62,246 bases of DNA, taken from the NCBI GenBank assembly GCA_029864185.1, contig JAOTTY010000001.1:1-62246 (forward strand). The letters are read 5' to 3'. Shown piece after piece: positions 14,725 through 59,347 of this stretch (position 1 is its first letter; each line of letters opens with the position of its first letter). This DNA comes from Gammaproteobacteria bacterium. GTDB lineage: Bacteria; Pseudomonadota; Gammaproteobacteria; GCA-001735895. The notes below the pieces were generated by a model. It saw nothing but the letters and a program-made list of their open reading frames with translations, had not been told where the DNA came from and searched no databases. The position numbers and the translations under genes were made by a program.

Positions 14725-14857
14725 GGCGGATTCCGGTAGGGGCGCGATTCTACCCGATATCGCCAGTTATTGTTCGGGATTCTGTGCGCGGTGCAGATGG
14801 CTTGATGATCGGCTCAGGTGCTCGAGTTCAGCCCCTTATTCAGGGTATACGGTATAC

Positions 14858-14911
14858 GGGGACAGTTTACTTATATCGCGCAAAATGGATTGAATTAAGT
14901 AAACTGTCCCC
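14858..14911. repeat. palindromic intergenic element, copy A
   Basis: Arms GGGGACAGTTTACTTA (14858-14873) and TAAGTAAACTGTCCCC (14896-14911), with the 22-nt spacer TATCGCGCAAAATGGATTGAAT. Confidence 0.9.
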
Positions 14912-14967
14912 TTAAATCCAACGTGAAAAATGGACCGTGGTCTTCGATCAGCGCTTACCCTGTGATT

Positions 14968-16011: not shown

Positions 16012-16125
16012 CGATTCAATTAGCGGTGGATATATATTCTTCGGAGTTTCTTCCCCGTTACGATCCTACCACGTGGCGCGACAACACTACCAGGCAGGGA
16101 TTTTTTTAGGACAAACTTACAATAC

Positions 16126-16179
16126 GGGGACAGTTTACCCATATCGCAGAAAATGGATTGAACCAAGTAAACTGTCGCC
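16126..16179. repeat. palindromic intergenic element, copy B (degenerate)
   Basis: GGGGACAGTTTACCC...ATATCGCAGAAAATGGATTGAA...CAAGTAAACTGTCGCC. It is collinear with copy A, spacer included, and in the same orientation. Confidence 0.85.
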
Positions 16180-16184
16180 GGATT

Positions 16185-16910
16185 TCAGCTCACCAGGTTG
16201 AACAGCGAAAGCGCCAGCAGCGTCGCGATCGCGGCACGGCGAAACAGCTTTTCGCTGGATTTGCGGAATCCGTGCGAACCCATCCAGGTGCCCAGAAGGT
16301 AGGTGGCCGCGCCCGGCAACGCGGTGATCACGTCATCGACGCCGGTGGTGCCGCTGACTGCGGATATCAGCGCGAAGCCCAGCACCGTGAAAAACGACCA
16401 GGAAATGATCAGCGTTCGCCCCTCATCCTTGTCGTAGGGACCGAGCAGGATAAAGACGACTGCCACCAGCGCGATATAGGTGCCGCCGAAAACAACACCA
16501 GCGCAGATGCCGACGAAAACCAGCCAGCTCCGGGTCATCGGGTGCCGGTAGCGAAATCCGACCAGCATCATCACGCAGGCGGCCGCGATGATCATCGCTA
16601 TCGCGCGTTTCATCCACACGGGATCGAGTTCGATGAGCAGCCAGTGACCAAGGGGCATGAACACCAGCGTCGGCACCAGCATGGTAATTGTTGCACGCCA
16701 GTCGATCTGCCGATAACAGAGCTTGAACAGGTAGAGGCTCGCGAAAAAATCGACCACGAGTATTTTCGATACGATACTGACCGGGGTAAAGAACAGGGTC
16801 AGAATCGCGAGCATGAATGCCGGGCCGCCGAAACCGGTGAAGCCCCGGATCAGCCCGGCGCCGAAGGCGACCAGTGCGACAACCAGTATACCTGGTTCGT
16901 CACCAGTCAA
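16185..16910 (-). CDS. TauE/SafE-family membrane transporter
   Basis: Polytopic, with FGAGLIRGFTGFGGPAFMLAIL near the N-terminus. Its start overlaps the upstream gene by 11 nt. Confidence 0.6.
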   Translation of the reverse strand: MTGDEPGILVVALVAFGAGLIRGFTGFGGPAFMLAILTLFFTPVSIVSKILVVDFFASLYLFKLCYRQIDWRATITMLVPTLVFMPLGHWLLIELDPVWMKRAIAMIIAAACVMMLVGFRYRHPMTRSWLVFVGICAGVVFGGTYIALVAVVFILLGPYDKDEGRTLIISWSFFTVLGFALISAVSGTTGVDDVITALPGAATYLLGTWMGSHGFRKSSEKLFRRAAIATLLALSLFNLVS

Positions 16911-35221: not shown

Positions 35222-35228
35222 GATATTC

Positions 35229-35307
35229 GGGGACAGTTTACTTAATTCGGCCTGTCGAATTAAGTAAACTGTCCCCTTTATGGCGCCGAATTAAGTAAAC
35301 TGTCCCC
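35229..35307. repeat. palindromic intergenic element, copy C (one left arm, two right arms)
   Basis: Left arm GGGGACAGTTTACTTAATTCG (35229-35249), loop GCCTGT, then right arm CGAATTAAGTAAACTGTCCCC at 35256-35276 and again at 35287-35307. Confidence 0.92.
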
Positions 35308-35310
35308 TTT

Positions 35311-37485
35311 ATGGACGTATCCCACTTAATCGATCCTCTGAACGAACCTCAGCGCGAAGCGGTGAGCGCCGAACCGGGCCCGATACTGGTGCTCGCCGGC
35401 GCCGGCAGCGGCAAGACGCGGGTATTGACCCATCGCGTCGCCTGGGTTTGCGAAGTCAACGGCCTGTCTCCTTATAGCGTGCTCGCGGTTACCTTTACCA
35501 ACAAGGCGGCCAGCGAGATGCGCTCGCGGGTCGAATCCCTGCTCGGCATATCGGCGGCAGCAATGTGGGTCGGAACTTTTCACGGGCTCACGCATCGCAT
35601 GCTGCGCCTGCACTACGAGGCCGCCGGTCTGCCGCAGGGGTTTCAAATCCTCGACAGCGACGACCAGTTGCGCATGGTCAAGCGCGTCATACGGCAACTC
35701 GACCTCGACGAGGCGCGCTGGCCGCCCAAGCAGGCGCAGTGGTTTATCAATCACAACAAGGATGAAGGCCTGCGCCCGGCGCATATCGATCCCGGTCAGG
35801 ATCCTATCCAGCAGCAAATGCTCGAAATTTACCGGCTCTACCAGGACCTGTGCGACCGCGCCGGGGTCGTCGATTTCGCCGAGTTACTGCTGCGGGTGCT
35901 CGAATTGATCCGTGACAACGACGACATTCGCGAGCACTATCAGCGCCGGTTTCGGCACATCCTGGTCGACGAGTTTCAGGACACCAACGCGATCCAATAC
36001 GCCTGGCTGCGGCTCATGGCGGGCGCCGAAACCCCGGTGTTCGTGGTTGGCGACGATGACCAGTCGATCTACGGCTGGCGCGGCGCGCGCATCGAGAATA
36101 TCCATCATTTCGAAAAAGACTTCGCCGCGACCAGGGTGATCAGGCTGGAGCAGAACTATCGCTCCACCGGCACCATCCTGAAGGCCGCCAACGCGTTGAT
36201 CGACAACAATAATTCGCGTCTCGGCAAGGAATTATGGACGCAGAGCGATGCCGGCGAACCGATCCTGTTCTACTCGGCCTACAACGAGAAAGACGAGGCG
36301 CGTTTCGTCGTCGATCGCATCGAAAGCTGGGTTGAACAGGGGCGTAGCCGCAAAGAAATCGCGGTGCTTTACCGTTCCAACGCGCAGTCGCGCCAGTTTG
36401 AAGAAAGCCTGGTGACGCGTGGCGTGCCCTATCGCGTCTACGGCGGGTTACGCTTTTTCGAGCGCGCCGAGATCAAGGATACGCTCGCCTACCTGCGCAT
36501 GATATCGAGCCCGACCGCGGACAACGCCTTCGAGCGCACGGTCAATCACCCGCCGCGCGGCATCGGGCAAAAAACCATCGACGAAATCCGTAACTATGCG
36601 CGCGAACAATCGGCGTCGCTGTGGACCGCGGCGCGCGAACTGGTGAAATCGCCCGATCGGCTGACCTCGCGCGCGCGCGGCGCGCTGCAGGCATACCTCG
36701 ACCTGGTACAGCGCATGACAGACCAGCTGGCCGAACTGCCGCTCGGCGAGCAGATAAAATCGAGCATCGAAATGAGCGGGCTGGACGCTCATTTCAAGAA
36801 AGACAGCAGCGAAAAAGGCCAGTCTCGAATCGAAAACCTGCAGGAACTGGTCGGTGCCGGCAAGAGCTACGAATACGACGCGGTGATCGAAGAAAGCATG
36901 ACGACGCTCGACGCCTTCCTGGCGCATGCCGCGCTTGAAGCAGGGGAAGGCCAGGCCGACGCCTGGGAAGATTGTGTGCAATTGATGACCATGCATTCGG
37001 TCAAGGGGCTGGAGTTTCCGCTGGTGTTTCTGGTCGGCATGGAGGAGGGACTGTTCCCGCACCAGCGGTCCAGCGAGGAGCCCGGCCGCATGGAGGAAGA
37101 GCGCCGCCTTTGTTATGTCGGAATCACGCGCGCGCGCGAACAGCTGGTGGTAACCAGTGCCGAAGTACGGCGCCTGTTCGGTGGCGAAAGCTATAATATG
37201 CTGTCACGATTCGTGCGCGAAATTCCGCACGAACTGATCCAGGAAATCCGCCCCAGGGCGCAGTTCACGCGTCCCGGGTTGCAGGCGACGCCCGCGGTGC
37301 ACCGCGAGCTGGCCGAGCAGGATACGGGCCTCTTCGTCGGACAGCGCGTCAACCATGCGCGCTTCGGCGACGGGGTCGTGCTGAATCTCGAGGGGCAGGG
37401 ATCGCAGTCGCGGGTCCAGGTCAATTTCGAAGCCGCCGGCAGCAAATGGCTGATCGCGAGCATGGCAAATCTGCAGCCCGCCTGA
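35311..37485 (+). CDS. uvrD: DNA helicase II
   Basis: MDVSHLIDPLNEPQREAV aligns with the E. coli UvrD N-terminus. AGAGSGKTRVL and DEFQDTN. Confidence 0.95.
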   Translation: MDVSHLIDPLNEPQREAVSAEPGPILVLAGAGSGKTRVLTHRVAWVCEVNGLSPYSVLAVTFTNKAASEMRSRVESLLGISAAAMWVGTFHGLTHRMLRLHYEAAGLPQGFQILDSDDQLRMVKRVIRQLDLDEARWPPKQAQWFINHNKDEGLRPAHIDPGQDPIQQQMLEIYRLYQDLCDRAGVVDFAELLLRVLELIRDNDDIREHYQRRFRHILVDEFQDTNAIQYAWLRLMAGAETPVFVVGDDDQSIYGWRGARIENIHHFEKDFAATRVIRLEQNYRSTGTILKAANALIDNNNSRLGKELWTQSDAGEPILFYSAYNEKDEARFVVDRIESWVEQGRSRKEIAVLYRSNAQSRQFEESLVTRGVPYRVYGGLRFFERAEIKDTLAYLRMISSPTADNAFERTVNHPPRGIGQKTIDEIRNYAREQSASLWTAARELVKSPDRLTSRARGALQAYLDLVQRMTDQLAELPLGEQIKSSIEMSGLDAHFKKDSSEKGQSRIENLQELVGAGKSYEYDAVIEESMTTLDAFLAHAALEAGEGQADAWEDCVQLMTMHSVKGLEFPLVFLVGMEEGLFPHQRSSEEPGRMEEERRLCYVGITRAREQLVVTSAEVRRLFGGESYNMLSRFVREIPHELIQEIRPRAQFTRPGLQATPAVHRELAEQDTGLFVGQRVNHARFGDGVVLNLEGQGSQSRVQVNFEAAGSKWLIASMANLQPA

Positions 37486-37550
37486 CCGGGCAATGCGCAT
37501 CCTGGCAGGCTCGTGTAGAATCGTCGCAGCCAAAATCAACAGGAGCAAAA

Positions 37551-38417
37551 ATGAGCAAGCAAAAAGTTGCCTTTATCGGGCTCGGGGTCATGGGTTATCC
37601 GATGGCCGGTCATCTCGCCAAGGCCGGTTACCCGACCCGGGTATACAATCGCACCAGCGCGAAAGCCGAAAAATGGTGCCAGGAATACGGCGGTGATTTC
37701 GCGACAACCCCGCGCGAGGCCGCCGAGGGCGCCGACTTCGTCTTCATGTGCGTCGGTAACGACGATGACCTGCGTTCGGTCGTATTCGGTAACGATGGAG
37801 TACTGGCCGGGTGCAAGGACGGCTCGATCCTGATCGATCACACGACGGCATCGGCTAATGTCGCGCGCGAGATCGCCGAAAAATCCGAGGTGCCATTTCT
37901 GGATGCGCCCGTGTCGGGCGGGCAGGCCGGCGCCGAGAACGGCGTGCTTACCGTCATGATTGGCGGCGAGCAGGCCGCTTTCGACGCTGCACGACCGGTC
38001 ATCATGAGTTACGCGCGCGCCGCGGAACTGATGGGCGGTGCCGGTGCCGGGCAGTTGACCAAGATGGTCAACCAGATCTGTATCGCCGGGCTGGTCCAGG
38101 GGCTGTCGGAAGGTCTCAATTTTGCACAGCGCGCCGGGCTCGACGGTCACAAGGTGGTCGAAGTCATCTCCAAGGGCGCCGCGGGGTCCTGGCAAATGGA
38201 AAATCGTGGCGACACGATGCTCGACGATAAATTCGATTTTGGTTTCGCGGTCGACTGGATGCGCAAGGACCTCGCGATTTGCCTCGAGGAAGCCGAGAAA
38301 AACGGCGCGCAATTGCCGGTTACCCGTATCGTCAACGATTTTTACGGTGAAATTCAGCAAATGGGCGGTGGTCGCTGGGATACTTCGAGCCTGATTCGGC
38401 GACTGACCCGGAAATAA
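37551..38417 (+). CDS. NAD(P)-dependent oxidoreductase, 3-hydroxyisobutyrate dehydrogenase family
   Basis: The start is moved to ATG 37551, preceded by AGGAG. VAFIGLGVMGYPMAGHL. Confidence 0.85.
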   Translation: MSKQKVAFIGLGVMGYPMAGHLAKAGYPTRVYNRTSAKAEKWCQEYGGDFATTPREAAEGADFVFMCVGNDDDLRSVVFGNDGVLAGCKDGSILIDHTTASANVAREIAEKSEVPFLDAPVSGGQAGAENGVLTVMIGGEQAAFDAARPVIMSYARAAELMGGAGAGQLTKMVNQICIAGLVQGLSEGLNFAQRAGLDGHKVVEVISKGAAGSWQMENRGDTMLDDKFDFGFAVDWMRKDLAICLEEAEKNGAQLPVTRIVNDFYGEIQQMGGGRWDTSSLIRRLTRK

Positions 38418-38705
38418 AAAAATTGCAAATATTTCTAATCTGTTCAAATCGCGAATATCGAACAATTAATATATATAAATCAAAAACTTAAGAGAGGTAA
38501 ATGATAAAAAAGATCACAAAGTGCGCCCATATACACTGTTTTTTATACCGTTTATCGTAAAAAAACTGGATTTTCTGAAATTATGTCCTATAAAGTTAAT
38601 CGTGTTAAAGGTTAAGAACACCTAACCTCTCTCACGATGTCCTCCTTTGGTTATAATTGTCGATTACGACTTTATGGCTGGTCTTACGACCAGCCATTTT
38701 TTTTG
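38418..38705 (+). other. AT-rich orphan intergenic island: candidate sRNA / micro-ORF locus
   Basis: A hand count of 38421-38640 gives 64 G+C in 220 nt (about 29%), against roughly 60% in the flanks. It ends in an intrinsic terminator. It contains CCTCTCTC and CCTCCTTT tracts and two micro-ORFs. Confidence 0.5.
38674..38704 (+). terminator. rho-independent terminator
   Basis: ATGGCTGGTC-TTAC-GACCAGCCAT: a 10-bp stem and 4-nt loop, followed by TTTTTTT. Confidence 0.85.
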
Positions 38706-38740: not shown

Positions 38741-38827
38741 AATTCCGGGGACACATTACTTAACTTAATTCGCGATTTAATCAGGACTGGTCGAAGTTCC
38801 TGAATTAAGTAATGTGTCCCCGGAATT
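38741..38827. repeat. palindromic intergenic element, copy D (sequence variant)
   Basis: 23-bp perfect inverted arms AATTCCGGGGACACATTACTTAA (38741-38763) and TTAAGTAATGTGTCCCCGGAATT (38805-38827), with a 41-nt spacer. Confidence 0.9.
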
Positions 38828-38905
38828 GTTGCTTGACCGCGGACGACATTTTGTCAATATGACAGGTCGACACCTGGTAACGTGCGGTCAAGCCCGGGAG
38901 GAAAG

Positions 38906-39874
38906 ATGTACGCCTGGAAATGTGTGACCTGGGGTGATCCGAGGCACCTGCAATTGGGCCGTATGCCGGATCCCGTCTGCGAGGCCGGGCAGGTCGAAAT
39001 CACGGTCAAGGCATGCGGCGTAAACTTCGCCGATCTGCTGCTGATTTCAGGACGTTACCAGTTACGGCCCGAACTCCCGTTCATACCGGGAATGGAAGTT
39101 GCGGGATGGGTTACTGCCGTCGGACCCGGCGTTACGGTGCCTCGCGTCGGAGAACATGTTGCTGCTTACGTCAAATACGGCGGTTACGCCGACAAGGTCG
39201 TCGCGCCGACCGCCCAGGTCGCCGTCATTCCGGATTCGATTTCATCGGCGACAGCGGCCGCCTTCCCGGTATCCTACGGCTCTGCAGAACTGGCACTTGA
39301 CCGCGCGCATCTGAGCGCAGGAGAAGTGGTGGTCATAGGTGGTGCCGCGGGCGCGGTGGGCAGCGCGTGCATCGAGCTTGCGAAGCAGCGCGGCGCGACC
39401 GTAATCGCCTGCGTTGGCGACGACGCCAAGGAGCAGGTCGCGCGTGCCTGTGGCGCGGATGAAATCGTGTCGTCGCGTTCGCGGGCCCTGCAGCAAGACC
39501 TGCAAGCGGCCACTGCCGACGGTGTCGACGTGATTATCGACCCGGTAGGCGGAAGCTTCTTCGACGAGTCCCTGCGCGCGCTGAGATTTGGAGGCCGCGT
39601 CGTCGTGCTTGGATTCGCGTCTGGCAAGATCCCTTCGCTACGCCTGAATCAGTTGCTCATCAGGCAGCAGAGCGTCATCGGCGCTTCCTTCGGTCTCACC
39701 TGCATCAAGGACCCCGCGCGTATTTCCGATAAGTGGCCGGAGCTGGTTGCAATGCTCGAGCGCGGCGCTATCAAGCCCAGGATCAGCAAGACATTGCCTT
39801 TCACCGATCTGCCCAGGGCGCTTAATCTGCTGAAGGAGCGCAAGCTCGCCGGAAGGGCGGTTTTAGGCGGCTGA
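38906..39874 (+). CDS. NADPH:quinone oxidoreductase-like MDR-family dehydrogenase
   Basis: The start is moved to ATG 38906, preceded by GGGAGGAAAG. Cofactor motif VVIGGAAGAVGSACIELAK. Confidence 0.85.
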   Translation: MYAWKCVTWGDPRHLQLGRMPDPVCEAGQVEITVKACGVNFADLLLISGRYQLRPELPFIPGMEVAGWVTAVGPGVTVPRVGEHVAAYVKYGGYADKVVAPTAQVAVIPDSISSATAAAFPVSYGSAELALDRAHLSAGEVVVIGGAAGAVGSACIELAKQRGATVIACVGDDAKEQVARACGADEIVSSRSRALQQDLQAATADGVDVIIDPVGGSFFDESLRALRFGGRVVVLGFASGKIPSLRLNQLLIRQQSVIGASFGLTCIKDPARISDKWPELVAMLERGAIKPRISKTLPFTDLPRALNLLKERKLAGRAVLGG

Positions 39875-51320: not shown

Positions 51321-51905
51321 ATGGCTGCGCTGACCGCAGATATCCGTTTGATCGTCGGCCTCGGTAACCCCGGGGCCGATTACGTTGATACGCGCCATAA
51401 CGCCGGTTTCTGGCTGGTCGACCTGCTCGCGCAGGATCGCGGACTCAACTTTCGTTTCGAAAAACGCTACAACGCGGAAGAGTGCAAGTTCAAAGCAGCG
51501 GAAAGGGACGTATTTTTGCTGAAGCCGCAGACCTTCATGAATCGCAGCGGCCAGTCGGTCGCGGGGCTGGCGCGCTTCTACAAAATCGCGCCGGAACAGA
51601 TCCTGGTGCTGCACGACGAGCTCGATTTGCCGCCCGGCACCAACCGCATCAAGCAGGCTGGCGGTCACGGCGGGCACAACGGATTACGCGACATCATCAA
51701 TCATCTCGGCAGCCGCGAGTTCTTCCGCATCCGTATCGGTATCGGTCATCCCGGGGACAGCAGCCAGGTAATCAACTACGTATTGCACAAGCCATCGGCG
51801 ACGGACCTGAAAGCGATCGAGGCGGCCAACCTCGATACGCTCGAGGTCATGCCGCTGGTGATCGAAGGGCGCATCGACAAGGCGATGCAGGCCCTGCATA
51901 GCTGA
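51321..51905 (+). CDS. pth: peptidyl-tRNA hydrolase
   Basis: [22 protein letters not shown]. Confidence 0.95.
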
Positions 51906-51915
51906 AGGAAATATC

Positions 51916-53007
51916 ATGGGATTCAAATGTGGCATCGTCGGACTGCCGAACGTCGGCAAGTCGACCCTGTTCAACTCGCTGACCAGGGCCGGCATCGCTG
52001 CCGAAAACTATCCGTTCTGCACTATCGATCCGAACATCGGCGTGGTCGAGGTACCCGACCCGCGTCTGCAGCAGCTGGCCGACATCGTCAAGCCGAAGAA
52101 AGTCATTCCCACGACGATGGAGTTCGTCGATATCGCGGGACTAGTCGCGGGCGCGTCCAAAGGCGAGGGCCTCGGCAACCAGTTCCTCGGGCATATCCGC
52201 GAGACCGACGCGATCGCGCAAGTGGTGCGCTGTTTCGAGAACGACGATATCGCGCATGTCAGCAACCGGATTCATCCGCTGTCCGATATCGAAACGATCA
52301 ATACCGAGTTGCTGCTGGCCGACATGGAGTCGATTGCGCGCCAGACCGAGCGCGCCGCGAAGCTGGCCAAGTCCAACGAAAAAGAAGCGAAAGCCAGGTA
52401 TGAATTCATGCAGGCGGTGCAGGCGCATGTCGAGGCCGGTAACGCGGCGCGCGTCTTCGCCGTGACCGATCAGCAGCGCCCGTGGATGAAGGAGCTGCAC
52501 CTGATTACCGCGAAACCGGTGCTTTATATCGCCAACGTGTCCGAGGACGGCTTCGGCAACAATCCCCATCTGGACGCGGTGCGCGAGCATGCCGAGGGCG
52601 AAGGCGCGGAGGTGGTCGCGGTCTGCGCCGCGATCGAGTCCGATATTGCCGAACTCGACGCCGCCGAGGCCGCGGAGTTTCTTGCCGAAATGGGACTCGA
52701 GGAGCCGGGCCTCGACCGCGTAATCCACGCCGGCTACCGGCTATTGCATCTGCAGACCTTTTTCACCGCGGGGCCGCAGGAAGTGCGCGCCTGGACCATC
52801 CGCGTCGGCGACACCGCGCCGCGCGCAGCCGGCAGGATTCATACCGATTTCGAGAAAGGATTCATCCGCGCCGAGGTGGTCGCCTTCGATGACTTCATCG
52901 CCTGCAACGGCGAGCAGGGCGCCAAGGATGCCGGCAAGTGGCGCCTCGAAGGCAAGGATTACGTGATGCAGGAAGGCGACGTGGTACACTTCCGTTTCAA
53001 CGTCTAG
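51916..53007 (+). CDS. ychF: redox-regulated ATPase YchF
   Basis: [15 protein letters not shown], 363 aa, pth-ychF synteny. Confidence 0.95.
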
Positions 53008-53095: not shown

Positions 53096-53172
53096 GGCTA
53101 CGTAGCTCAGTTGGTTAGAGCACATCACTCATAATGATGGGGTCCCCTGTTCAAATCAGGGCGTAGCCACCA
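53096..53172 (+). tRNA. tRNA-Met, elongator type (anticodon CAT)
   Basis: GGCTACGTAGCTCAGTTGGTTAGAGCACATCACTCATAATGATGGGGTC is nearly identical to the first 50 nt of E. coli metT. CCA is encoded. Confidence 0.93.
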
Positions 53173-53188
53173 TTTTCGGACGCTGTGA

Positions 53189-54936: not shown

Positions 54937-54981
54937 CTCATAATGATGGGGTCCCCTGTTCAAATCAGGGCGTAGCCACCA
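54937..54981 (+). repeat. direct repeat: exact copy of the tRNA-Met 3' 45 nt (att-like)
   Basis: CTCATAATGATGGGGTCCCCTGTTCAAATCAGGGCGTAGCCACCA is identical to 53128-53172. Weaker homology continues to about 55042, matching 53173-53234. Confidence 0.95.
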
Positions 54982-55221
54982 TTTTCGGGCTGCTGCGCAC
55001 CACGATTGCAGCGTTGGATTTCGTAACGAGCCGCTCGTGCACGGGTCTTTACAGCTCCCGGCATCGCTGCGAAATCTGCCTTGCACTCGACGTACTCATG
55101 ACGCCCAAAAAGCGTCTGCTCTGTTCAGTGTTGGTTTCGAGCGCGGGTTATTCCGATCAGGGCTGCACGCAACTCGAGTCGCCGGTAGGCGTTTGCCGCA
55201 GAATATCAGGCATTCTTCGGG

Positions 55222-58200: not shown

Positions 58201-58683
58201 GCCGGCAACATGGGTTGCGTGGCCGCTGATTTCGGTTGCGCCGTCAACCTGGGTTACATTGGGCAAATCGCCGTGCAGCGGATGAACCGCGCCGCCATCC
58301 CATTGGCCGACGATAAGGCCTGAACCTTCCAGGTTGAATCCGGCCAGGCCACCGGGCCAGACATCGTCGGTGGATACGGTATCCGCGGCGCCGAGATTAT
58401 TGGTCACGTAGAATATGGGACCCATGCCGGGCACCAGACGCTGAAGTTCGAGAGCTCGGCCGTTTGGCAGGGCGCGCCGCAGCGGAATGCCCGCTCGATT
58501 GGCAAATTCGATAGCCCTGGCCCTTTCCGACTGTGCGCGATCCTGAAATTTTTCGGCGAGCTGCTGTAACTGCTCATCGCCTGCGGCTGACAGCTTGCCC
58601 GTTGCAAGTGCCGCCAGGAGTAGCAAAATTAGCAGGATCAGGCGATGTGGTCTGTCATCGACAGGTCGGTTCCAATACCCCAT
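55222..58683 (-). CDS. secreted multidomain subtilisin-like (S8) serine protease
   Basis: Signal peptide HRLILLILLLLAALATGKLSAAG. Triad contexts: VGQWDGG (Asp), SGHATHVAGT (His), SGTSMSAPNVTG (Ser). C-terminal jelly-roll/MAM-like, Ig/cadherin-like (TDSFTYTLTDGNGDSSSATVTITV) and pre-peptidase-C-terminal-like modules. Confidence 0.9.
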   Translation of the reverse strand: MGYWNRPVDDRPHRLILLILLLLAALATGKLSAAGDEQLQQLAEKFQDRAQSERARAIEFANRAGIPLRRALPNGRALELQRLVPGMGPIFYVTNNLGAADTVSTDDVWPGGLAGFNLEGSGLIVGQWDGGAVHPLHGDLPNVTQVDGATEISGHATHVAGTLVGAGSYPPARGMASAAGLHAYDWNNDAGEMATAAAGGLLLSNHSYGAAAGWVYIGDAEPNQWWWIGGSGDEDPKFGFYGQISRDWDLIAYQAPDYLVVKSAGNDRTDFGPAPGETYTIVDDNGNPLGTSTQQRPADCAPLGFDCLALHSVAKNILTIGAVDDIQGGYSPLVGPAQVSMAPFSAWGPTDDGRIKPDLVANGVLLLSTWIDEFSPYAIASGTSMSAPNVTGSLLLLQEHHEDLKGPGNFLRAASLKAVAIHTADEAGDGDGPDYRHGWGLLNTRKAAELISDAHIGIDHQIIENTLADGGNFSVPVQVLEAGSVIRASLVWADPPANPVPYALDPTDSMLVNDLDLRVVVGQTEYAPWVLDPAAPAAVATRGDNVRDNVEQVVTDALGAGSYTVEVTHKGQLLELDELEQLVPGAQDFSLIVSVLPAPPTGSNNVFNVDFSGGLPTGWSVQTDYGKDWEIFTPQPGSNRYDNFTPGSGDFAMVDNLYAVTRTSLQSPVMDLSGYAGLILTFDSCFLFDLLESINIDASTDGGQNWTNIWSQLGVVHCPTQYALDLSSLAGETSVMLRWRFDSGGDSNGNYWQIDTLVLDGIGGGSGSENPPGPASNPSPIDSAIDVDVNTQLAWGAAVDADSHDVYFGINPTPGIAEFRGNQPSTSFDPGTLADSTTYYWRIDEVNPYGTTLGPVWSFQTADPVTAVTMHLDGLSADSAEASRGRWDAAVTISVADDLGQALAGVLVDGSWSNGANGSASCTTDNSGDCIVNKLDIRNNTDSVTFSVDALTLTGHSYDENANTVGTSIVVGKPQPNLLPQAADDFFATPVDTVLNENVMSNDTVGEAPTTVTAWGTSSLTGGSLTSTASDGSFTYLPSGGFIGTDSFTYTLTDGNGDSSSATVTITVGEPPVERSLILSTSKNRGNNLVTLQWSGHTGSTVDIYRNGVLAANDEPNDGNWQDNLGKSVSGTYLYEVCETVVVTNCANASVSF

Positions 58684-59220
58684 GTGAAAATCCGTTTACT
58701 TTGCAATCCTGGTATTATAGTCGATGTCGAGCTTGCTATTTTTCGTACTAGTTCAAATTCCGCCGCTTTATTCAGGGTTTTTCGATAAGGTGAATTTATC
58801 ACTGGGGAGTATTTGATTGCATGGTAACAGGCCGGTCTCAGAATAGGGCGTAGCCGCCTTGTCCAGTTTGAAGACATATTCCTTTTAATTCAATGAGCTA
58901 CGCTCGGAACTTCAAACGTGATCTGGATGATGGGCTCCAAGGACACGGACGGACTTTTGTCCGATGACTTCGCCGCCCCACTGGTGGCCACATATTTCCC
59001 CGTGAGGATGAGGCCGTGCCGTTCGTACAGGTGGGCTGCCATGCGGGTTCGGGGGGAACAGCTTATATCAATTGAACTGATTTCATGCGTATGATTAAGC
59101 TTGCCGGTGTAGGAAAATTGGAGGAATCAGATGTGCATTGTTGTGTTCAATGGTGCAATCGCTGCAACGGGCGCCCCGTTAAACTATTGAGTAATAGTTA
59201 TAAATTAGTCGCCACATCAT

Positions 59221-59266
59221 ACTCATAATGATGGGGTCCCCTGTTCAAATCAGGGCGTAGCCACCA
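59221..59266 (+). repeat. direct repeat: exact copy of the tRNA-Met 3' 46 nt (att-like)
   Basis: ACTCATAATGATGGGGTCCCCTGTTCAAATCAGGGCGTAGCCACCA is identical to 53127-53172. The upstream CACATCAT also resembles tRNA CACATCA, with a 2-nt indel. Confidence 0.95.
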
Positions 59267-59347
59267 TTTTTTCAATGACCTGGCGCCAGTTTTTAATCTC
59301 CATGGTTTCAACGCCGGATATTATGGGAAACGGCACGGGTAATCTAT

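Follow-up and report, generated by a model that had tools for sequence, protein, structure and literature searches.

CyaR, an Hfq-dependent small RNA (sRNA) of Gammaproteobacteria about 87 nt long, pairs through a CCUCCUU-containing region with the Shine-Dalgarno (SD) sequences of ompX, nadE, and luxS, and RsaE is another example of an sRNA with a C/U-rich anti-SD motif. Other sRNAs, such as DapZ and MicL, share the terminator of the upstream gene and have their own promoter inside its coding sequence. In the Alphaproteobacteria, the Hfq-binding AbcR1/2 as well as NfeR1 pair with ribosome-binding sites through C/U-rich anti-SD motifs, and such pairing has been predicted for the Hfq-dependent MmgR (PMC7143759). 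MmgR (alpha-r8) and AbcR1/2 (alpha-r15) measure 77 to 120 nt, NfeR1 is alpha-r14, and the anti-SD motif of MmgR (Rfam family RF00519) lies within the loop of the first hairpin (PMC7143759). The toxic sRNAs of Betaproteobacteria are 57 to 92 nt long and end in a terminator, with four copies in B. cenocepacia J2315 (PMC4603805). Here, we describe a locus to be compared with these systems. It lies in a 62,246-nt stretch of gammaproteobacterial DNA (the window; contig JAOTTY010000001.1), where a sharply AT-rich island (positions 38418 to 38705) directly follows a gene for a 3-hydroxyisobutyrate-dehydrogenase-like (HIBDH-like) protein. The best reading of this island is that it consists of one sRNA gene and its promoter region. 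The RNA is outside every Rfam 15 family and represents a new family of a known type.

We are highly confident that a conserved structured RNA element exists at this locus, and its features mark it as a likely non-coding RNA gene. The initial annotation, made from the letters of the DNA, had proposed an sRNA gene ending at the terminator of the island, and this proposal is upheld by a covariance model, by conservation, and by covariation. The covariance model, R1, combines 11 close sequences with a four-helix structure. It recovered the RNA in the window at full length (38601-38704, 135 bits, E = 2.7e-28) as the sole true copy, and the RNA is equally single-copy in every other locus where the model finds it. 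The parts of the predicted gene are the following.

38601-38704, forward strand: putative sRNA gene of ~104 nt (helix P1, seed, helix P2, terminator), delimited by model R1, conservation, and folding
38601-38636, forward strand: helix P1, with outer stem 38601-38604/38633-38636 and inner stem 38609-38614/38623-38628
38636-38654, forward strand: 19-nt seed GAUGUCCUCCUUUGGUUAU, with the putative anti-SD core CCUCCUUU at 38641-38648
38659-38670, forward strand: helix P2, hairpin GUCG-AUUA-CGAC, followed by a U-rich spacer (38671-38673)
38674-38704, forward strand: intrinsic terminator with a 10-bp stem, loop UUAC, and U-tail, found by terminator scan

Model R1 also gave weak minus-strand matches (24.6 to 33 bits) that overlap the promoter and P1 region, at 38558-38636 in the window and at equivalent positions in at least nine relatives. 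We attribute these matches to hairpin symmetry and AT-rich composition.

A protein search with the HIBDH-like protein found many relatives at 87 to 97% identity, in which a UvrD gene and the HIBDH-like gene are followed by a long intergenic region and then by a variable neighbor. In alignments, the intergenic DNA of these relatives is diverged except for block 38601-38670, which is identical in all of them, and the conservation starts sharply at 38601. Three contigs with an identical upstream protein (L001-L003) have 100% identical intergenic DNA; they are therefore uninformative. In L005, whose HIBDH-like protein is ~80 to 81% identical, the element is located 1.4 kb downstream of the HIBDH-like gene, past an inserted gene; its 3′ module is identical, and hairpin 1 stands at the same place with a different sequence. 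A scan of a genome collection with the same protein gave, among the matches listed, top identities of 83% (L004) and 81% (L005), with the other 78 loci coming from unrelated taxa. Among these listed matches, model R1 detected the RNA in L005 alone (57 bits) and nothing in the 79 loci around more distant HIBDH-like homologues.

Metagenome contigs scanned for the 19-mer GATGTCCTCCTTTGGTTAT contributed 79 loci with 68 distinct sequences over the RNA region. Model R1 recognized 74 of the 79 metagenome and metagenome-assembled genome (MAG) loci as homologues (45 to 137 bits) and left five chance matches unrecognized. In every case the RNA follows the HIBDH-like gene in the same orientation, at a distance of 134 to 316 nt in most loci and of 1.1 to 1.9 kb where one to four co-oriented genes have been inserted. 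The neighbor on the far side varies and is either a quinone-oxidoreductase-like gene (forward strand) or an SRPBCC or UPF0014 gene (reverse strand). One locus, L094 (3368-3819), carries the same HIBDH-like allele as L093 and shows one mismatch over the 101 nt after the stop codon; beyond this point it diverges into an antisense open reading frame (ORF) of 111 amino acids and is without the sRNA. Either the locus was rearranged or received an insertion, or the assembly is chimeric.

The 104-nt RNA has a predicted folding energy of -32.9 kcal/mol, compared with -16.9 ± 2.8 kcal/mol for shuffled sequences (z = -5.7; 0 of 200 as good). Covariation was counted on 58 distinct homologues aligned to model R1, and such a model-fitted alignment favors the structure. 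Standard pairs occupied 97.2% of 1327 cells, both sides had changed in 18 of the 23 pairs, and none of 500 shuffles matched the observed values, while pairing fell to 15 to 44% in a control with the 3′ partners shifted by 1 to 3 columns. The structural conclusion is robust despite the model-fitted alignment because of the effect size and because compensatory examples were checked by hand (CGUG/CACG to AGUG/CACU, AGGUUA/UAACCU to AGGAUU/AAUCUU, and GUCG/CGAC to GCCG/UGGC). Comparison of the sequences thus robustly supports four predicted helices: P1 outer, P1 inner, P2, and the terminator.

Helix P1, with internal loops UUAA and CUCU, is paired in 96 to 97% of cells, and 6 of its 10 pairs have changed on both sides, such as the outermost pair (C-G to A-U) and a pair of the inner stem (G-C to A-U). 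Helix P2 is paired in 99% of cells with both-side changes in all 4 pairs, and it is followed by UUU(A)U or AUUUU in the homologues. The terminator is exactly as first described, with stem ATGGCTGGTC/GACCAGCCAT at 38674-38697 (10 pairs, 6 of them G-C), loop TTAC, and seven more T to position 38704. Both sides have changed in 8 of its 9 modeled pairs, for example from GGCUGGUC to GGCCGGCC or AGCCGGCU, and the terminator of L087 carries the compensatory change as GGCCGGCC...GGCCGGCC. A run of at least seven T is found in nearly all homologues, with a single interruption in a few (e.g., L169 and L121). RNAalifold on a plain MAFFT alignment was set aside: the diverged hairpins were misaligned, and the program gave only the terminator and an alternative pairing between UAACC and GGUUA.

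The most conserved part of the RNA lies between P1 and P2, in a segment of ~22 nt that is mostly unpaired. The 19-mer GAUGUCCUCCUUUGGUUAU is identical in all nine relatives that were found through the flanking protein and thus independently of the seed (L084, L086-L089, L093, L095, L097, and L005). Within it, CCUCCUUU has a mean unpaired probability of 0.77. The initial annotation had marked the pyrimidine tract CCTCCTTT at 38641-38648, with correct coordinates, as a possible seed directed at SD sequences. This is the best reading of the CCUCCUUU tract, because the tract sits in the most conserved and largely unpaired part of the RNA. The core of the anti-SD sequence is 5′-CCUCC-3′ (PMC10783764). 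The seed core CCUCCUU matches the anti-SD sequence, and its complement CCAAAGGAGGACAUC is a strong ribosome-binding site. Three of the five chance matches of the metagenome scan (L122, L160, and L163) contain the seed complement as ATAACCAAAGGAGGACATC followed by ATG within ~10 nt, so that the complement seems to have the form of a natural ribosome-binding site.

A second tract, CCTCTCTC, is present as first noted but occupies 38626-38633, one base to the right of its original placement. The suggestion that CCUCUCUC acts in cis by sequestering an upstream AGAGAGG is not borne out, as AGAGAGG (38491-38497) lies upstream of the conserved block and is itself unconserved, and most of CCUCUCUC is base-paired inside helix P1.

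The length of the seed raises the alternative that the RNA binds a protein or the ribosome instead of mRNAs, either as a decoy of the 16S rRNA 3′ tail or as a sponge for another RNA. Absolute invariance over 19 nt exceeds the typical length of a seed, and the resemblance extends beyond the CCUCC core, with 10 of 13 positions matching the usual 16S rRNA 3′ end, which we take to be GAUCACCUCCUUA. However, the sequence lacks repeated motifs for protein binding (e.g., GGA repeats), the architecture is of the base-pairing sRNA type, and the documented sRNAs with C/U-rich anti-SD motifs act on the ribosome-binding sites of mRNAs (PMC7143759). We therefore consider a decoy or sponge improbable. In a related and quite speculative proposal, to which we give little credence, the RNA would be a global translation modulator whose 19-mer is an extended mimic of the 16S rRNA 3′ tail (GAU..CCUCCUU). 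Its expression would depend on a stress-specific or activator-dependent promoter, to which the invariant CTGG at -35, the C at -13, the T-rich boxes, and the IHF-like site would belong, and the RNA would vie with ribosomes for the strongest SD sites or titrate a factor that recognizes the 16S 3′ end. If true, competition for SD sites would act transcriptome-wide in an abundant lineage of uncultured Gammaproteobacteria encountered in metagenomes.

An Hfq-binding module consists of an internal hairpin, a U-rich stretch, and a terminator with a U-tail. Helix P2, the U-rich spacer, and the U-tailed terminator look like such a module in the folded model, and the general features of Hfq-type sRNAs are present in the RNA: a terminator with a long U-tail, a hairpin and a U-rich stretch upstream of it, and a conserved single-stranded seed. 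The anatomy as a whole, with a 5′ hairpin, an exposed C/U-rich segment, a small hairpin, a spacer, and a terminator, resembles that of a trans-acting base-pairing sRNA. We hold it to be probable, with some reserve, that the element is an independently transcribed, trans-acting anti-SD sRNA.

For 64 unique homologues (50 of a main clade and 14 of a diverged clade), the sequences preceding the RNA were anchored at the start predicted by model R1. The following features, numbered relative to this start, precede the RNA.

38418-38600, forward strand: AT-rich spacer from the HIBDH-like stop codon to the RNA start, with the regulatory region and both micro-ORFs discussed below
38478-38490, forward strand: IHF-consensus-like site AATCAAAAACTTA (consensus WATCAANNNNTTR), at -123
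38537-38556, forward strand: T-rich boxes TGTTTTTTATA-CCGTTTATC, at -64 to -45, then an A-tract up to CTGG
38566-38594, forward strand: conserved promoter-like core, with CTGG at 38566-38569 (-35 to -32), an 18-nt gap, and C-TATAAA at 38588-38594 (-13 to -7)

Positions -1 to -6 are variable and nearly every position from +1 is conserved, which, as a pattern of conservation, is the usual signature of a transcription start and suggests one here. CTGG stands at -35 ± 1 in 61 of the 64 upstream regions and CTATAWA at -13 ± 1 in 49 of them; the 18-nt gap is kept in 46 of the 48 sequences that match the combined pattern, and the conserved block begins 5 to 7 nt past CTATAWA. These motifs keep a fixed distance from the boundary, also in the diverged clade and in loci with intervening genes. 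Farther upstream, TGTTTT is found at -64 ± 1 in 49 of the 50 main-clade sequences and YKTTTRTY at -52 or -51 in 46 of all 64, and L005 retains TGTTTTTTATAGCTTTTAT in the region of the T-rich boxes, which are a candidate activator site or UP element. The motif WATCAANNNNTTR, which we take to be the IHF consensus, occurs at -123 or -122 in 32 of the 50 main-clade sequences under a strict pattern and in 41 under a relaxed one, and in 1 of the 14 diverged-clade sequences; the site is IHF-like by sequence only. The promoter first proposed, TTCAAA-N18-TAATAT, is present at 38443-38472 but lies in unconserved sequence, the conserved motifs being those at 38566-38594. These motifs also imply a transcript of ~104 nt rather than the 150 to 250 nt expected at first.

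The C at -13 is invariant, and in the diverged clade CTGG takes the form CTGGAAA. These two properties allow a sigma-S-like reading (C at -13) or a sigma-32-like reading (CTTGAAA-N13-15-CCCCATNT) of the promoter as possibilities suggested by sequence. Two other readings of CTGG were rejected by eye: sigma-54, with no GC at -12, and sigma-E, with no conserved GGAACTT and no TCTGA.

Several points weigh against independent transcription and trans action. The -35 element CTGGnn is a poor match to sigma-70, and the 5′ end at 38601, like independent transcription itself, is suggested by conservation. A terminator scan found none between the HIBDH-like stop codon and 38674, and the upstream gene invariably has the same orientation as the RNA; read-through or processing from that gene is possible. 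The invariance of the seed in L098-L176 is by construction, as the 19-mer was the search pattern. The seed may also be partly occluded in some folds. A weak mini-hairpin at 38637-38654 would show UCCUUU in a 6-nt loop, and the pairing of UAACC (38623-38627), in the 3′ arm of inner P1, with GGUUA (38649-38653), just past the seed core, would place the anti-SD motif in a 21-nt loop. Both alternative pairings fit the homologues (the latter is compatible with 97.9% of cells), and neither can covary because one or both sides never vary; for UAACC/GGUUA, the 3′ side was fixed by the search pattern. An RNAduplex target scan of the 62-kb window gave no outstanding site, and the best non-self duplexes (-22 to -26 kcal/mol) include many within coding sequence. 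The start region of ychF (51886-51925) was considered as a target and rejected, its -22.9 kcal/mol being no better than matches inside coding sequence. A search for Hfq, CsrA, and ProQ signatures found none in the 62-kb window, and this absence, also that of an Hfq gene, is uninformative.

Part of this evidence would suit a different explanation, in which the conserved block is a 3′ untranslated region (3′-UTR) element of the HIBDH-like mRNA that stabilizes or terminates its 3′ end, or a processed sRNA derived from that region. Since no terminator follows the HIBDH-like stop codon, the HIBDH-like mRNA probably ends at the 38674-38704 terminator, which the two transcripts would then share, and the RNA always follows, in the same orientation, either the HIBDH-like gene or the co-oriented genes inserted after it. 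The long structured 3′-UTR named in the initial annotation is, to this extent, in keeping with the absence of a terminator between gene and RNA, but it is not supported otherwise. Promoter-like motifs stand at fixed distances from the sharp boundary in 61 to 62 of the 64 sequences, and they move with the RNA across one to four intervening genes (L005, L159, and L162/L166). The ~185 nt from the stop codon to the block are conserved in patches only and not as an RNA-like structure, and a passive 3′ end has no need of an invariant unpaired 19-mer. We thus regard a 3′-UTR element as unlikely and prefer the independently transcribed sRNA.

The composition of the island bears on where it came from. 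The count of 64 G+C in the 220 nt of 38421-38640 (29.1%) was confirmed, and in 200-nt sliding windows the island is the lowest stretch of all 62 kb (minimum, 26%). G+C content is 29.7% for 38418-38673 and 31.3% for 38418-38705, compared with 59.0% for the whole window. The strong contrast with the flanks, together with a palindromic repeat element 36 nt downstream, had suggested a horizontal origin, and the island could in principle be a horizontally acquired remnant or a functionless compositional accident. Such a reading is already contradicted by the comparative data and is, in our judgment, extremely improbable. The island occupies the same syntenic site in every relative sampled with enough flank; G+C content over the 190 nt preceding the RNA averages 28.8% in the 64 homologues; the helices covary and the core is invariant; viral contigs and plasmids gave no match; and the palindromic element lies outside the conserved block and is missing from several relatives. 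AT-richness is thus a conserved property of the regulatory region, because it is shared by the homologues, and it gives no indication of horizontal transfer.

Length variation in the spacer is limited. The tblastn match to the upstream gene ends 181 to 193 nt before the RNA start in most main-clade loci, and a subset whose stop codon is followed by an insert has a gap of ~280 to 290 nt. In L086 (3371-3480) and L088 (3371-3490), ~100 extra nt follow the HIBDH-like stop codon ahead of the AT-rich promoter region and include a hairpin-like CTTAGC...GCTAAG, a feature of a sub-clade.

Coding capacity in the island is slight. No ORF of at least 60 amino acids was found wholly within it, in agreement with the initial annotation; the only one that touches it is a 309-amino-acid minus-strand ORF (37536-38465), antisense to the HIBDH-like gene, the final 48 nt of which extend into the island. 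Micro-ORFs are indeed present at 38501-38560 (19 codons, preceded by AGAGAGG) and 38583-38615 (10 codons), and a 43-codon ORF starts from an ATG inside the seed. That the locus encodes one or more micro-peptides is nonetheless very hard to believe. The first ATG is present in 22 of the 60 unique homologues, and in 5 of these 22 the frame closes immediately; the second is present in 30 of 60; peptide lengths vary; the ORF from the seed ATG has anywhere between 10 and 50 codons, since 1-nt indels in the linker break the frame; and AGAGAGG is unconserved. None of the three ORFs thus keeps its coding frame among the homologues.

The genes around the island and RNA are as follows.

35311-37485: UvrD gene, in the upstream flank
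37551-38417: 3-HIBDH-like NAD(P) oxidoreductase, directly upstream of the island
38906-39874: zinc-type alcohol dehydrogenase/quinone oxidoreductase-like gene, downstream
SRPBCC/GyrI-like gene: convergent flanking gene

Other elements of the window were also noted. The palindromic element belongs to a family with arms such as GGGGACAGTTTACTTAATTCG/CGAATTAAGTAAACTGTCCCC and intergenic copies at 14853-14918, 16121-16186, 35222-35314, and 38741-38828, which resemble repetitive extragenic palindromes or miniature inverted-repeat transposable elements. Lying beyond the conserved sRNA block, the copy at 38741-38828 has a counterpart in L084 and none in L086 or L088. The 3′ part (~45 nt) of a tRNA-Met gene (53096-53172) is repeated twice more downstream with 100% and 94% identity, as a 52-nt unit that runs a few bases past the gene (53128-53179, 54937-54988, and 59222-59273). 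These repeats flank two segments in the manner expected of att-site duplications from integrated islands, with a cargo that includes a transglutaminase-like protein and an S8 subtilase of 1153 amino acids containing Big_9 and cadherin-like domains; the ORFs checked included no integrase. The next-lowest G+C stretch of the window, at ~40% (40.5% near 58.7 kb; 58619-58900), lies in the second of the two, upstream of the minus-strand subtilase gene.

Taken as an independently transcribed sRNA, the element may work as follows. Transcription would start at about 38601 from CTGG (-35) and, after the 18-nt gap, C-TATAAA (-13 to -7), probably aided by the T-rich boxes (-64 and -52), the A-tract, and the IHF-like site (-123), and would stop at the intrinsic terminator (38674-38704), which is probably also the end of the 3-HIBDH-like mRNA. 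The transcript is predicted to fold into the bipartite 5′ hairpin P1, the largely unpaired segment of ~22 nt, P2, the U-rich spacer, and the terminator hairpin with its U-tail. The unpaired segment would present the invariant GAUGUCCUCCUUUGGUUAU, with its CCUCCUU core as the putative anti-SD match. The RNA most likely acts in trans by pairing with SD regions like CCAAAGGAGGACAUC, where it would block ribosome access and repress translation, probably with the assistance of a chaperone that binds the Hfq-like module of P2, U-rich spacer, and U-tailed terminator. We infer both the pairing with ribosome-binding sites and the Hfq dependence from this architecture, and any particular mRNA target would likewise be predicted from the seed.

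This locus gives an uncultured lineage of Gammaproteobacteria, known only from metagenomes and MAGs, a well-supported and structure-validated family of sRNAs for which a covariance model, the seed, and the promoter architecture have been defined. The invariant anti-SD seed yields a directly testable regulatory hypothesis, and the conserved upstream boxes point to a regulator. The locus also illustrates that, within a GC-rich genome, a sharply AT-rich island can be the promoter region of a native sRNA and not foreign DNA. No sRNA described for this lineage was found in Rfam 15 or in the literature searched, and a literature search on sRNAs of Woeseiaceae returned nothing useful.

A match to a described RNA family had been named as the outcome that would speak against a new sRNA. 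Rfam 15, searched with the whole window at the gathering threshold, returned two tRNAs only and no family at the locus; at E-values up to 10, the island region gave weak, chance-level, sub-threshold matches only, and six homologues at permissive E-values likewise gave sub-threshold matches only. The best Rfam match is RF00519 (mmgR/suhB), with 25.0 bits for the window, 28.4 for L145, 24.8 for L099, and 21.6 for L114, against a gathering threshold of 41. In the cmscan alignment this match consists mainly of the terminator; the CCUCCCU region of the model is not aligned to the CCUCC of this RNA, and the first hairpin of the model has its pairs marked as non-standard. RF02278 (Betaproteobacteria toxic small RNA) reaches 26.5 bits in L132 and 25.1 in L114 against a gathering threshold of 50, and it gave no match to the window copy at E-values up to 10, and neither did RF00112 (CyaR) to the region. 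The recurrence of sub-threshold RF00519 and RF02278 matches in the homologues amounts to a weak resemblance to anti-SD sRNA families.

Like MmgR, AbcR1/2, and NfeR1, the RNA is short, ends in a terminator, and carries a C/U-rich anti-SD motif in an unpaired region; unlike these alphaproteobacterial sRNAs, it is found in hosts labeled Gammaproteobacteria. Its CCUCC is placed between P1 and P2 and not, as in MmgR, in the loop of the first hairpin (the P1 loop is AGAACACC), and its 5′ hairpin is bipartite. It differs from CyaR in sequence, structure, promoter, and genomic context. With the RF02278 sRNAs it shares small size and a terminal terminator, whereas those are multi-copy and only one copy of this RNA is present in the window and in each locus that has it. 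As with DapZ and MicL, the RNA directly follows a protein gene of the same orientation, has no intervening terminator, and probably shares the terminator of that gene; unlike them, its promoter-like motifs follow the stop codon and occupy a dedicated spacer of ~185 nt.

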